From contig NC_087250.1 in NCBI RefSeq assembly GCF_037042905.1, forward strand, positions 28,088,001 through 28,152,000: DNA of 64,000 nucleotides. The letters are read 5' to 3'. Below, one piece after another: positions 6,801-12,800 of the stretch. Position numbers and translations under genes: made by a program. Origin of the DNA: Lytechinus pictus. Taxonomy: Eukaryota. Below the pieces are notes generated by a model. It worked only from the letters and a program-made list of their open reading frames with translations, was not told the DNA's origin and did no database searches. Every line of letters begins with the position of its first letter. Positions within the stretch are counted from its first letter, which is position 1.

Positions 6801-9800
6801 TAAAAAATAATATCACATTTACTACATCTTTTCCTCCCTCCCCCTTGTATAAGTTTATTCTTGGTGCCGGGAACTTCTTCTTCTCTCTATCTCTTTTCTA
6901 AATTATATATTTGTTTTGGGTCAGATTGACAAAACAAAGGGGGAAAATGTTTACTTTTTTAATAATATATCGTTCAACAGTTAATTTAATTTCTCTACAG
7001 TTTCAAGGAAATAAACAATGTATTTGTTTTTGTGTCAATATGGTTTCAAGAAATAATAATTGAATAATCATAATTATCAATAAGTATTAATAATTAATGA
7101 TTGATTAACTGTTTAAAGAAATATTTAAGATTTACCCTCTCCCAACTAAGGGTATGGAACGTCCTGTTTATTTTATATCCGTTTGAATATAACTTTATTT
7201 GTTAGTATTCTTTTATCTGTTTTTTAAGGTAAAATAAGTGTAGAAGATACAAAAAATGAGAATTTAAATTTAAAAGTGGTTGTAAGCAGAAAAAATATGA
7301 AAAATGACAAGAGTCCTAAAAATGACTCATTTTCAGTTAAATAATTAAAAAGTTTTAGCTTGCGCTTTGTGCTCTCTTCCCCCCCCTAAAAAATTCCTGA
7401 AGGTTTCTTTTTCCAAAAGAAATATGCACTTTAAAAAAAAGAAATATACCTTATTTAATAATAAAGGATTTAATGATAAGGATTTCTTAGCTGAAAAAAA
7501 AAATTGACAAGCAAAAAAAATCTTCACGTTCAAAAGAGGTGACACAAGTCTTTTTTGTTGCATTTTGGCATTACAAATTATTAATTTGGCCTCTCAAGGG
7601 GGGGGGCACGTCCCCTGGATCAGTTGTAATTCGTCAGGGGGCAGTCTGCCCCCCCCCCCCTGGTACGCTAGTTGTTCCATGCTGATACAGCGTAGATCAG
7701 AGTCTAGATCTAGAGACTAGACTAGAACTAAGATATTTTTTATATCTAGGACTGGTTCTGTATACGGACTAGACATATTAATCCATGGTAAATAAAATCA
7801 AACGTAAAGTTCGTAATTTACCGGTTCGAAGTTAACCATGGCATTAATTAGTCGGCTATTAATATTAGTATTAGGCATCAGACAGGTCCATATTTGAGGA
7901 AAAGTTAATGCGCTAGCCTAAGCTAGCCCTAGCCTAGCACATGTAATGGCAGCTAGTTTGATAAAGGCCTATGTAACTATGTAAGGGTACCGGTAATTTG
8001 ACGATGCTAATTCATTCTGAGCAACGTGAATGCTTACGACCTGCACTGGTCGAGGTGAAGTCCACGCGCATGCGTACTCTTAATCCGAAGGCGCAAGTCA
8101 TGAATATTCATATGTTGGTCCAGAACTCGGTGGGAAAAATAATTTCGCCCCCCGGCTAATTCTTATATGGGGTGAGCTGATGAGGGGGTCTAACACGTAC
8201 CCAGTAAGAAAAAAGGTTAAAAAATACATACAAACTTCTTTAACATAAAAAGCTTCTTCTTCTTCTTCTTTGGTTATGGTTGGCAACCAGTCAAGAAATT
8301 GTATTTTTGCCACTCCTTTTCGAGCTTTTTTAAGATTATATAATTTCCTCCTTTTTTCATGTACTATTTTGCTTTATTTTCTATTTATTTTTCCTTTTCT
8401 AAATAGAAAAGAGCCTTGCTAACATGTCAAGTTTGAAAAAGTAGCAAATAGGATGCGCTTTCAAAATGAAATTATAAATTTCTCGTTGATTTGGCAAATA
8501 ATTGATGTCATAATCACGTCATAATCTGGTCATACAAAAATGCAAAATAAAGTTGTCATTCATAGTCGTCAAAATTACGTCGTAACAACGTCGTACAAAT
8601 AACTCACGATGAGTTTGACCAGTTTTGTACCAAAAAATGACGTCATCACGAGCATGTCTGCTATCAGGGTATGTACATCAACACCGCAGATTTAGCTCTT
8701 TAGGGCTACAAAAAAAAACAGTAGATGCTGTAACCGTACAAAACCGAAGAAAGATCATTACCATCATCACACCGGATCCGTACTTGCATCTCATACGGGT
8801 ATTGAAACTCGTATATGTTGTTCGTGAATGAAAAATCTGACTTGTCCATGTATATATAGGTCGCTTCTAAGGTATCGTACTCATGGAAGTCGACAAGGGA
8901 TGCATCTATGGTAAACCCTTCAAAGAACACTATGGTATCGGGTAGATGGTCTATAAAGACATCGACGCCACAAGATGGAGTTCCATGGATGCGCCAAACC
9001 TGCCTATTGATATAAACACAACAAAAAAAGTAAGTCCCCCCTAAATCAAATTGCTGTTACTTTTGAACAGAATTATTTTGGGATATGATATTTAGCAGGT
9101 GGTTTTTACACTCATAAGGCAACTCCTGGGGGGAAATGAGATTGATCGGTTGAGTCATGCAGGAGTAATTAAAGATTGAATTAAAAATGAACATTTTTGA
9201 AAGTCACAAGAGTCGATTTTCAGATTTCGCTCATACAAAGTTGGGAAAAAGTTGTTTTTGTGAATTTTATGGTGTTATGCTGTTTTACTATCCATCATTT
9301 AGCCACTCCACACACAGTTTTGATATCGTATGTTCATGGTTGAGTGAGCACAATGTATTGCAGGGGCCGCGGAAGGGGAAGAGGGGGCTTTAGCCCCCCC
9401 CTCACTTTTTTCCAAAAGCATGTACAAAAATGTAAAAATGACCATACGATTCTGATTTTTGCATGGTCAGCCCCCCCCCCCCCCCCCCCCCCCACTTTGA
9501 AAACCGTTCCGGGGCCCCTGTATTGTGACGTATCCTCACTGGGGATTATGGTGGTATCCTCTACAACTTGCTAGATCATCTTAAAATTTGAAAATGTTGG
9601 TGTCTCCCCCGATTACCCCCCTCCTCAATTTTAAAATTCTGAATCCCCCACTGATTTGTCCATGAATTAAACTGATCATGAGAGATTGTTATGAAAAGAA
9701 TACATTTATGCAGTATAAAGAGTATTCATTCCTAAGTTTTCGAATGTGCTCGCTCAACCATGAAAATGTTTTAAGTTCGGAAAGTGTGTTGTGATAGAAA

Positions 9801-12800
9801 TGATGGATGATAAAGACAACAGCTATCAAAGTCACATTTTAAACCGAATTTGCCCCCAATATTCACCTTATTACACTTTATGATGAGTCTGGGATATTGA
9901 AAATACAAATTTTCCCTCTTTGATGCGTGCTCACTCATCCAAAAATAAACAAATCGATCTGATTTTTACACAGAATTCTCACCATAGACTCATAAACGTT
10001 ACTGCCAAATCAAATTGGTAAAGACAGCCTTGAAAAAAAGTTCCACTCTATTAAATAAGGGGCTACTTATTCTTAAACATATGCACCCATAATGTACACA
10101 AGTCTATGAGAGAGGAAGTAATTATTTTAACAAATATGAAATGAAGGTTTGTTTCATGGACGATTTTTGTTATTTCTGCCAACAGTTATTTCATGAAACT
10201 TCGCACATGGCTTCAGAATAACTCTATCCGAAAGGTGCGCGCACCAAAATAACCATTCGATACGGCACAGAGTGGGCCAAGGCCTTGAATTTTCTTCTCA
10301 TTTGCATATTTTTTTAATATTGTGTGCTCACTAATGCATTAAACTTTGGAATTTTCATAAAAATCAAATCAAATGAACTATGCAAGGATGTTTGTGACAG
10401 ATATCCATAGTTACAAATTACAAAAAAATTGCCAATAACGTAAAAAAGAGCTAATCACATTCTACATGTTCATTCAAGCGTGAATGTTTAATTAAACGCC
10501 TTTGAATCATTGAAGCATGTTAATTGGGCATGAACATAACAAAAAATTTGAGAAAAGATCATTTTCTGTTACCAAAATGAAACAATACGTGCCTATGATA
10601 TTTGAAAATCGTATTTTTTGTTTTCAATAAATGTTCACTGAACCGTGAAACGATGAATATTGTTGAAGATACTCTTCCCCAAGATAACTGTCATCATATT
10701 CTATAATTTTTATTTATAGAAATGTGTAAAAAATCCAATTATAGCAAATTTGGACTTGTGTTTATTCAACCGTGAAATTTAGCAAAAAAATTGTACCGTC
10801 TTATAGAAAGTACCTTTTACAAACCTTCTGACTATTTTTCATGATGAGAATGTGGAATCAGTTCGATTAAAATGGAATCAAAGTAATGACATTTGGCTTG
10901 TGACTTTTGAAAAGTGACATTTTTCCCTTCTGACGGTGCTCACTGAAGCATGACGTAAAATACGTCCATAACATTTACTCAGATGGTAGCTTATAAAATC
11001 ACCTACACACTCATGTAAAAATATATTAAAAACTCGCATTGGTTCGGAAATTATTGATGTTTGTTTAAGGGGTGACTTACTTTTTTTGTTGTGTATATAC
11101 ATCCGATGTGGACAAGTATTCCATCTGCCAGTCCTCTCCTTCAGATAGGTAGACATGTGTCAAGTATGTTTCTGAAATGAAAAGAAAGAATTCACCTCCT
11201 TGTCCTGGCAGTAAGACACACGAAGTAAGAGCTGTACAAAATTCCACAAATATGAATGGGGTCCCTTCAGTGGCGGACCGTGACCCGGAGGAGACAAAGC
11301 ATTGGGGGGGCACAGCATTGTTCACGGACAATGCAGTGCCCCCCCCCCCCAATGCTTTGTCTTCTCCGGGTCACGGTACGCTACTAGGTCCCTTCTTAGG
11401 GGTCCGGAAGTGTCTCAGTCACCCGGAAAAGTTTGAATTCCTTGTTGCTTACGGTAGATATGCGAATAATTTTACAATCAGGGTAAACAAACTGTCTCAT
11501 TGCCGGTTAGACAATAAGACTTATGGGGGGGGGGTTATAGATCTTTTCATTCACAATATTCGCTTATAATTTTGTGTTTCCGACAAATGCAATGTAATTT
11601 TTTTATGTCTCCGCCAATCGCAGGCGGTTATTCAGAGGCTTTATGTTTCCAGATCGTCGATCTCTTTCTCGCGAATACAGTGGCGTACAGAGGGAAGGGG
11701 GGGGGGGGGCTTGGGGCGCTTTTTCCCCCATAACAGAAATCAAGACCAAGAAAAACAAGAAAAGGGAGAAATGTATTATTTTCGGAATATTTTGTCATAA
11801 TCTTATAAATTTTGTCCGATAAGCCATAGCTTATTCCCTCAAAATGTTTGGCTCATTACGCTACTGTGCGGTTAATATAAAAAAGAGCTGAATGACCGCA
11901 CAAAAAAGTTGTAAGTGCTAACAGAGGGCCTGTTACAACGTAATGTAGCAGCGATGCCTGATGTTGCAACCATGCACACATTGTATGTTTTGATTTCACA
12001 ATCCGAAAGTGCTCTCTTAGACTAACGTTTTTGTGCGGCCGGCACTGGTTGACGGATCAACTTGGTCAAAGTCTGCATGTAGGAGTGACAACGGTCAAAG
12101 GTCAAATAAGTAATTGCATACCCTAAAGTATCTTGTTCTGGTGAAATCTCTTACGAACCATCTGAGTGTTCAAATCTAAACTTCGCTACGGGACCAGCTC
12201 GGCCGTGAGACGGCAAAACAAGTACATGTATGTCAAATTGATGTATGCAAATTGATCTTTTTGTCGAATTTGGCTTTGTACAAGTACAATCTAACTACCA
12301 ATGAAATTTTGAAACCCAAACGACACCTTCAATGAAATATGGCAGCCCCTCAATAGAATGTTCCAGTTTGCTGGAAAAAACAGCCTATGCGGCGATGGTG
12401 TTACAGACAAAACAACATAAGAGAGCGGTGTTGGCTCAGTCGGTAACGCGTCTGCGCGTCGAACCAAAGATCGTGGGTTCGAGTCCATCCCGGGCAGATG
12501 ACTGAGGCCAGTGCTTTGTGTGTAAACGTGTCTCTCCCATGTTTCATAGATGCAGGCTATGTTACAATGGAAAACACTCCGTCCCTCGGATAGGACGTTA
12601 AATGGAGGCCCACTGTAGAGGAGAGTAATCACCTTCGCACGTTAAGAACCCACTGCACTATTCGTATAAGAGTAGGGGAAACCCCGGTGTAGTGGTCCAC
12701 CTGCAATACCCCCCCCCCAATCAGTTATATTGGGAGGAGAGACCTGCAGGTCATAGTGATTCAGTTCGCTTTTCGCCTCCCAGGCACAGGCGTCGCCAAA

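Follow-up and report, generated by a model that had tools for sequence, protein, structure and literature searches.

Transposons Ds and dSpm are reportedly spliced from maize exons and Tc1 from C. elegans pre-mRNAs, in what are said to be laboratory alleles with RNA evidence; Tc1 duplicates TA on insertion. For introners, Gozashti et al. 2022 (PMC9860276) describe, in the portions drawn on here, cases in which the element brings one splice site and adds codons, and a variant that takes its second splice site from the neighbouring exon and changes a few codons. Animal introner cases of 0.9-4.6 kb, from sea urchin and tunicate, appear in supplement file 8, within the excerpts used of these two papers (Gozashti et al. 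2022, PMC9860276; 2025, PMC12130899). SOS splicing, in the sections used of Zhao et al. 2025 (PMC12779559), has 90-100% efficiency with GU-AG rarely used, and its rescue worked for insertions in poorly conserved parts of proteins.

Here, we describe a 2-kb transposon inside a coding exon of Lytechinus pictus, whose intron-like end signals could remove the element in frame. It lies in a window of 64,000 nucleotides (assembly GCF_037042905.1, contig NC_087250.1, positions 28,088,001 to 28,152,000 of the forward strand), and all positions below are counted from the first base of that window. Like introners, it is a DNA transposon lying in an exon, its terminal repeats and target duplication at the putative intron boundaries, carrying one splice site and potentially borrowing the other from the host exon. 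Known introner families, however, consist of demonstrably spliced introns, nearly identical to one another, that recur across many unrelated genes, whereas here one of 17 distinct copies examined is exonic, most lie in TA-rich non-coding DNA, and the case is known from DNA. The locus resembles SOS-splicing substrates in that a coding exon of an animal gene harbours a cut-and-paste element with a TA duplication and repeats able to pair, inserted in a poorly conserved part of the protein; SOS splicing proceeds without GU-AG and gives heterogeneous junctions, whereas this repeat also offers a perfect spliceosomal donor. With the Ds, dSpm and Tc1 alleles it shares transposon ends that would supply cryptic splice sites, so that the allele would stay functional or leaky at the cost of a small indel, but it arose naturally, seems to be old and is carried by both haplotigs, as read from DNA alone. 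In its TA duplication and terminal inverted repeats, and in a family of thousands of copies uniform in length, the element matches Tc1/mariner-type non-autonomous elements, although 2.08 kb is long for a MITE.

The transposon and its family

A first-pass annotation of the window had placed a terminal inverted repeat (TIR) element with a TA target-site duplication inside a coding exon, and the boundaries below, with 36-nt repeats, confirm it.

9015..11095, minus strand: non-autonomous TIR transposon, 2,081 bp, a diverged member of a high-copy family
11060..11095, minus strand: upstream terminal inverted repeat (gene strand), reading TACACAACAAAAAAA followed directly by GTAAGTC...
9015..9050, minus strand: downstream terminal inverted repeat (gene strand), reading ..GACTTAC-TTTTTTTGTTGTGTT, containing a branch-like A (9031) and a T-rich tract
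11096..11097, minus strand: TA target-site duplication, upstream copy, from end alignment with family copies
9013..9014, minus strand: TA target-site duplication, downstream copy, from end alignment with family copies

The inverted repeat arms (9011-9050 and 11060-11099) are 40 nt long and 90% complementary, and a 21-nt core of the repeat occurs three times in the window versus 0.00 expected (100 shuffles). The paired repeats are predicted to form an RNA duplex of about 40 bp (-49 kcal/mol), pairable inverted repeats in an exon being the feature of an SOS-splicing substrate. Alignment of the ends of 18 other genomic copies gives family termini of 5'-TACACAAC...GTTGTGTA-3' with TA on both flanks; of the 18 copies for which both ends were recovered, among them the window copy and the haplotig copy, 17 have TA/TA flanks. 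GTAAGT is kept in the repeats recovered from all 18 other copies examined (34 ends in total), and base 9015 is T in the window copy and A in the family. There are at least 2,388-2,644 first-look candidates in the genome, and the copies scored (40 in each of two genome searches) are all 2.1 kb or shorter, most about 2.08 kb. The superfamily is taken to be of Tc1/mariner type, as inferred from the TA duplication alone. The longest open frame within the element has at most 93 codons, and the one frame scanned, at the TIR-proximal end, gave no Pfam match.

Changes private to the window element comprise 55 substitutions over 2,068 sites and 7 indels, of which 6 have lengths not divisible by 3; two of the private changes fall in its terminal repeats. 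The insertion is present on the second haplotig too; it is common to both and old relative to the divergence between them.

Many other copies sit in TA-rich DNA or TA microsatellites. Excision in silico from 16 other copies, sampled from the at least 2,388-2,644 candidates, yielded no coding-like frame across the junction: the shorter side of the junction-spanning frame has at most 28 codons in 15 of them and 47 codons in one, which lies within a (TA)n repeat. On these 16 copies besides the window copy, the family is not enriched in coding sequence and therefore does not look like a specialised introner family. The label introner-like, which the annotation had given the insertion, is thus unsupported as a property of the family.

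The interrupted exon and its paralog

The host gene is an animal EGF-repeat gene on the minus strand, with EGF exons alternating with exons for beta-rich domains. All exons in the gene model are phase 1-1, including the split exon of 327 nt.

11098..11171, minus strand: interrupted exon, upstream part; acceptor AG 11173-11172, phase 1 entry, identical to the paralog over about 56 nt
8762..9012, minus strand: interrupted exon, downstream part; donor G/GTAATG with GT at 8761-8760, phase 1 exit
15055..15162, minus strand: upstream neighbouring EGF exon, 108 nt, phase 1-1
737..850, minus strand: downstream neighbouring EGF exon, 114 nt, phase 1-1

Removal of the element and one TA restores the frame, as had been claimed for a precise removal, and leaves an open frame of 91+102 codons across the junction. 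The earlier name CUB-like for the exon was not confirmed by a search for PF00431, which we take to be the Pfam CUB domain: in a scan of 8 frames neither the downstream exon half nor the 29-codon upstream part matched at E<=1, and at E<=0.01 the frames of both halves and 147 further minus-strand frames gave no CUB match, nor did three more putative CUB-like exons at this cut-off. The 8 frames and the 149 minus-strand frames scanned gave Pfam matches to EGF and reverse-transcriptase only. AlphaFold2, run on the single sequence of the domain without an alignment, gave an all-beta model (pLDDT 54), and in this low-confidence model the insertion site falls between two strands. Among the only homologs that turned up, the segment at that site varies in sequence and in length, with 10 residues here once the element is excised, 8 in the paralog and 11 in homolog P0001. 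The insertion hit a part of a beta-rich domain exon that encodes a variable-length loop.

A full-length, collinear copy of the gene on another contig, C1, has the exon uninterrupted. This is the true uninterrupted paralog, a role that had been given to the exon CUB-like 3; tblastn found no similar exon within the window. The uninterrupted C1 exon points to gain of the interruption, not loss. A search for longer homologous proteins with the downstream exon half as query found none, and phmmer with the paralog exon against 1.84 billion representatives gave one match, a 70-residue fragment (E 6.8e-4).

Compared with the paralog, exons EGF1, CUB-like 2a, EGF2, CUB-like 3, CUB-like 4 and EGF4 are open without a frameshift. 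The dN/dS check proposed for the downstream exons was run against the paralog and gave 0.5-1.5 across all exons (a non-discriminating 0.83 upstream and 0.69 downstream of the insertion); therefore no constraint is demonstrable. At the element's rates about 5 disabling changes would be expected in roughly 1.3 kb of coding sequence, an upper bound since the private changes may partly predate the insertion. Frames that stayed open while the element changed so much, together with a spliced RNA-like contig that holds the downstream exon, weakly suggest that the gene is still alive.

Splice signals and a putative new intron

The following signals, all on the gene strand, lie at the ends of the element or compete with them.

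11080-11079, minus strand: putative donor GT (GTAAGT, upstream repeat), 15 nt inside the element end
11079-11077, minus strand: in-frame TAA within the upstream repeat, met on read-through
9004..9005, minus strand: proposed acceptor, the first AG beyond the repeat and located in host sequence; 10/15 upstream bases are pyrimidines
9000..9001, minus strand: second AG (CAG), 4 nt downstream of the proposed acceptor, out of frame with the repeat donor and in frame for a weak donor (GTATAT) at 11100
9126..9127, minus strand: competing acceptor-like site inside the element, tttccccccag before G, 12/15 pyrimidines; its use would lead to a premature stop

Four points of the first-pass annotation stand as sequence signals or by frame arithmetic: the GTAAGT donor of the first repeat has its GT at 11080-11079; the first AG past the far repeat is the host AG at 9005-9004; a putative junction 11081/9003 keeps the frame and changes INR to TQQKK; and an unspliced transcript would be stopped by the TAA at 11079-11077, after 5 codons. 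The repeat donor matches the gene's own donors (GTAAGT, GTAAGG, GTAATG), and a TAG acceptor is used at exon 850 in the gene model. Between an acceptor with 14/15 pyrimidines and GTAAGT, the upstream piece makes a putative exon of 91 nt. Acceptor strength was scored as the pyrimidine count in the 15 upstream bases, and on this crude measure some acceptors inside the element look stronger than the proposed one, and candidates at 9127-9126 (12/15), 10105-10104 (13/15) and 8881-8880 (11/15) look no worse than its 10/15; their use would give stops or frameshifts.

We tentatively propose that the gene copy works and that the spliceosome removes the element from pre-mRNA as a new intron of 2,077 nt, a reading that is possible but doubtful. 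A TA-targeting, non-autonomous cut-and-paste transposon would have inserted into a TATATA stretch; U1 would bind the GTAAGT 15 nt inside the repeat (donor between 11081 and 11080), which family copies carry, the mirror-image repeat would provide CTTAC and a T-rich tract, and the first host AG (9005-9004) would serve as acceptor. The mRNA would then keep 15 nt of transposon and lose 9 nt of host sequence. What the sequence shows is the inserted element with its boundaries, the signals and how the frames add up; a living gene and use of these exact sites are what we infer. Such splicing would be favoured by a consensus donor like the gene's own, a well-defined upstream exon and a site in a variable segment of the protein. 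It is made doubtful by the pyrimidine-poor acceptor, by at-least-as-good sites that give stops or frameshifts, by the CAG 4 nt on, by dN/dS and a family not enriched in coding sequence, and by runs with zero exon depth and no RNA read or contig at the junction. The predicted repeat duplex would also bury the donor and the proposed branch site, which counts against an intron.

If the junction is used, the locus would be a natural case in which a DNA transposon gave an animal gene a new intron, dated and on both haplotigs, with the uninterrupted paralog as its 'before' state, and a long TA-targeting family would join the few introners reported from animals. A broader proposal, that the whole family is a pre-adapted animal introner and this exon its first caught example, we regard as very improbable. 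By that proposal the symmetric repeats would give every copy, in either orientation, a donor 15 nt inside one end and a branch-like CTTAC with a T-tract at the other, repeat pairing would bring the two splice sites together, and insertion in a TA-containing exon with a nearby AG would make a new intron.

RNA reads and alternative fates of the transcript

Four runs chosen by species label (X1, X2, X21 and X24) were aligned to 600-15300; the 20 rows listed in the run search share 0.09-0.13 of the query words, none reaching half. Almost all aligned reads fall on repeats. The bin 8456-8946 has zero depth in X2, X21 and X24 and a depth of 3.81 in X1, possibly a DNA run, and exon bins are at zero depth in the two genuine RNA runs and in X2, the contig run. 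X1 has a depth of about 4 on scattered unique bins, including the apparently intronic 1091-1581, and is absent from exon 737-850. This run looks like DNA. A 169-nt contig of run X2 covers 737-827 with 0 differences and ends exactly at the exon donor, and the paralog differs from this stretch at 8 of 91 positions. Among the joints listed (15 of 66), none touches the element.

The insertion may instead have made a null or decaying allele, a possibility that we hold only tentatively, with transcripts truncated at the repeat TAA or spliced to out-of-frame or internal acceptors and degraded while the C1 paralog covers the function. Read-through stopping after 5 codons, stronger-looking internal acceptors that lead to stops (e.g. 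9127-9126), zero exon coverage in two genuine RNA runs, the collinear full-length paralog and dN/dS of 0.5-1.5 throughout all agree with decay, but the compared exons are all open while the element gained 55 substitutions and 7 indels, the downstream exon is found in a spliced contig specific to the locus, and both haplotigs carry the insertion. With the junction unused, the element would simply disrupt one copy of a duplicated gene that evolves fast, as ordinary insertions do. Skipping, with 15162-15055 joined directly to 850-737 in a protein that lacks one beta-rich domain, seems rather unlikely. The skipped product reads through in frame because the model exons (108, 327 and 114 nt here) are all phase 1-1, and X2, at a very sparse depth of 2, shows the downstream EGF exon and not the split exon; yet the 91-nt upstream piece, with its strong acceptor and consensus donor, should be recognised as an exon, and the 15055/850 joint is absent among the 15 of 66 joints listed, though the upstream EGF exon 15055-15162 is itself at zero depth in X2, X21 and X24.

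In SOS splicing, pairing of the repeats in the mRNA would lead to spliceosome-independent excision and RTCB ligation near the repeat ends, with heterogeneous junctions, some in frame. In the sections used of the source, the process acts on Tc1, Tc3 and Tc4 inserted in C. elegans exons and on HSMAR2 in human cells, with invertedly paired repeats the only need (PMC12779559). Its expected signature is a set of mostly non-GU-AG junctions of varying position close to the repeats, dependent on AKAP17A, CAAP1 and RTCB. The predicted duplex would meet that need, and the genome has a CAAP1-domain match (41 bits versus a cut-off of 25), but SOS splicing has so far been shown only in nematode and human cells. 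Here some 2 kb separate the consensus donor from the second repeat, which is transcribed later, giving the spliceosome a possible head start, and we consider SOS removal improbable at this exon. One repeat that offers both a perfect spliceosomal donor and a dsRNA trigger would make the locus a useful test substrate, and its junctions would show which of the spliceosome and SOS splicing wins in vivo.

Elsewhere in the alignments, circular ribozyme RNA was considered for the deep 'goes back' joints at 5027-5423 and rejected; Rfam gives only a tRNA there.

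The insertion and its element family

A DNA transposon lies within a coding exon of the minus-strand gene, whose EGF exons alternate with exons that the first-pass annotation named CUB-like. As had been claimed, removing the element with one TA restores an uninterrupted frame; the domain name was not confirmed, Pfam giving no CUB hit. On the minus strand the site reads ...TCGGATGTA-TA-[TACACAACAAAAAAAGTAAGTC ... GACTTACTTTTTTTGTTGTGTT]-TA-TATCAATAGGCAGGTTTGG... (host-TA-element-TA-host).

Features of the split exon and the element (window coordinates)
15162-15055, minus: EGF exon flanking the split exon (Pfam EGF, E 2e-8)
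11171-8762, minus: split exon, from after ttcatttcag to before GTAATG (327 nt, phase 1-1)
11097-96 and 9014-13: TA duplication
9015-11095: transposon element (2,081 bp)
850-737, minus: EGF exon flanking the split exon (Pfam EGF, E 6.5e-5)

The inverted repeat arms (9011-9050 and 11060-11099) are 40 nt long and 90% complementary, and their 21-nt core occurs 3 times in the window, with 0.00 expected from shuffles. In the genome (811.7 Mb, 368 contigs) a first look gives at least 2,644 candidates for the element; the 40 that were scored are all about 2.08 kb or shorter and 89-94% identical, except the window's own place and the copy on C34, a contig with a second haplotig (both 100%). Among 19 further loci cut out, two of which (L009 and L012) match the core to within three mismatches at a single end, ...AAAAAAAGTAAGTC... 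with TA before it is kept at every recovered end. Both ends were found for 18 copies, and 17 of these have TA/TA flanks. The aligned ends and flanks fix the element's limits, the TA duplication and a private A-to-T change at base 9015.

The element is non-autonomous, with a longest frame of at most 93 codons. Compared with the column majority of 17 copies, the window copy differs at 6.1% of sites; its private changes are 55 substitutions (over 2,068 sites) and 7 indels (lengths 3, 1, 2, 5, 1, 2 and 1), and 2 changes fall inside the repeats themselves. Main subfamily copies are 96-99% identical to the one at locus L020, and this subfamily is much younger than the window copy. Excision in the window leaves a junction-spanning frame of 91+102 codons; of 16 other copies, 15 have at most 28 codons on the shorter side, the remaining one (47) being a TA-repeat artefact. 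A second, fragmented copy (39578-40309 and 41306-41663; 89.7% and 74% identical, just one repeat recognisable) lies in another intron of the gene.

Haplotig and paralog

The C34 sequence is 99.5% identical to the window over 5.1 kb (7 mismatches, 7 gaps) and has the same insertion; its intron lengths are 0.35 and 2.2 kb apart from the window's. The insertion is thus no assembly artefact, and it is shared by both haplotigs or by two duplicates of very recent origin. The two element copies differ mainly in a run of 23 G at 9471-9493 (gene strand), 8 nt shorter in C34, and otherwise by 2 substitutions.

A paralogous gene on another contig (C1) has a collinear series of EGF1, CUB-like 2a, EGF2, CUB-like 3, the split exon and EGF4; its version of the exon is unbroken and encodes 8 residues at the site that has 10 in the window once the element is removed. 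dN/dS against this paralog (CUB-like 3, 0.83; downstream half, 0.56; EGF4, 1.54) is non-discriminating. At the element's rates, about 4 frameshifts and 1-2 stops would be expected in some 1.3 kb of coding sequence, and the exons aligned to the paralog show none. This is only suggestive of a still functional gene, since some of the private changes may be older than the insertion and indels may accumulate faster in AT-rich transposon DNA than in exons.

A search of 1.84 billion representatives with the paralog's exon returned just 1 distant fragment, and a single-sequence structure model is all-beta (pLDDT 54); Pfam gives this beta-rich domain no match, and large libraries contain almost nothing homologous to it. 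Compared with loci L023 and L029, the domain exons at 8762-9012 and 25770-26177 (minus) show these exons of the two paralogs to be mosaics of near-identical framework and short, wholly different segments of variable length, with overall dN/dS of 0.5-0.8, a pattern reminiscent of the diversifying loops of recognition proteins. Degraded non-LTR retrotransposon pieces (17138-19950, minus; RVT_1, E 1.9e-13, and zf-RVT) occupy part of the intron that precedes the EGF exon at 15162.

RNA evidence

A run search found no RNA runs on record containing the stretch. Two contig sets (X1, X2) and two genuine RNA read sets (X21, X24) were aligned to 600-15300. Depth at 8456-8946, most of the downstream exon part, is 0 in X2, X21 and X24 and 3.81 in X1, which may be DNA because it reaches the apparently intronic 1091-1581 and not exon 737-850; at 14839-15300 it is again 0 in X2, X21 and X24. 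None of 15 listed joints, of 66 from mapping the four runs, involves the element. One X2 contig (record 9; 169 nt, depth 2) matches 737-827 without difference and stops exactly at the donor of exon 737-850; the paralog differs at 8 of the 91 matched positions. It is most simply read as coming from a spliced transcript of this locus, from a part that lies downstream of the insertion.

Elsewhere, a tRNA gene (5240-5311, plus; Rfam 60.9 bits) sits in an intronic unit of about 400 bp (5027-5423), antisense to the gene and flanked by direct repeats of about 50 nt. In the rRNA-depleted X21 the unit's depth is one-sided and very high (bin mean 19,706), and hundreds of joints going back about 396 carry an 8-nt insert, a hint of tandem or SINE-like copies in other places. 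Strong, strand-biased X21 depth over two further repeats, at 12384-12874 (460) and 13366-14347 (up to 2,349), marks expressed repeat families unrelated to the finding; many molecules end at 14110.

Fate of the element in transcripts

The first-pass annotation had the transposon making its own intron, introner-like, and its arithmetic was entirely correct on recomputation. There is a putative donor AAA/GTAAGT (11081/11080), CTTAC with a branch-like A at 9031, and no AG after the far repeat until 9005-9004; the computed junction 11081/9003 would keep the frame and turn INR into TQQKK, and read-through of the repeat meets a stop at TAA 11079-11077. Donors used elsewhere in the gene are GTAAGT, GTAAGG and GTAATG, and one of its acceptors is TAG; as an exon, the upstream piece would measure 91 nt and have a strong signal at either end. 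GTAAGT is part of the transposition repeat in every copy, so its presence in the exon needs no selection for splicing, and the tract-lengthening change at 9015, which the first-pass annotation allowed could be chance, is unremarkable in a 25-nt tract given 55 private changes in about 2 kb. By a crude count, 10 of 15 bases upstream of the proposed acceptor are pyrimidines, and sites at 9127-9126 (12/15), 10105-10104 (13/15) and 8881-8880 (11/15) score higher. The repeats are computed to pair as an RNA duplex of about 40 bp (-49 kcal/mol), in which GUAAGU is exactly complementary to the proposed branch sequence ACUUAC, so both signals would be hidden. The competing acceptors, the pairing, the lack of reads at the junction and the alternatives of exon skipping and SOS splicing weaken the intron reading; spliceosomal in-frame removal of the element is a tentative reading, held with low confidence.

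A null allele is an equally tentative reading: use of any of the higher-scoring acceptors would give stops or frameshifts, but the open frames of the compared exons count against it. Skipping of the split exon would preserve the frame, all exons being phase 1-1, and seems improbable. We consider SOS splicing, the spliceosome-independent excision of exonic transposons, comparably unlikely, with a CAAP1-domain match in the genome and repeats able to form the duplex in its favour. Zhao et al. (2025, PMC12779559) show such removal of exonic DNA transposons from mRNA in C. elegans and in human cells. Pairing of the repeats sets it off, the spliceosome is not needed, and the resulting joins fall close to the repeats, seldom at GU-AG; the gene regains its function only at sites that tolerate small indels.

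The closest known kinds are introners and exonic transposons removed by SOS or classical splicing. On paper the case would work like an introner, with family membership putative; 0 of 16 other copies lie in coding-like context, and many copies are in TA-rich DNA or TA microsatellites. Matching supplement rows of PMC12130899, which may list others, record introner families in two animals, a sea urchin and a tunicate, with 4-6 copies and lengths of 0.9-4.6 kb (PMC9860276 also treats introners).
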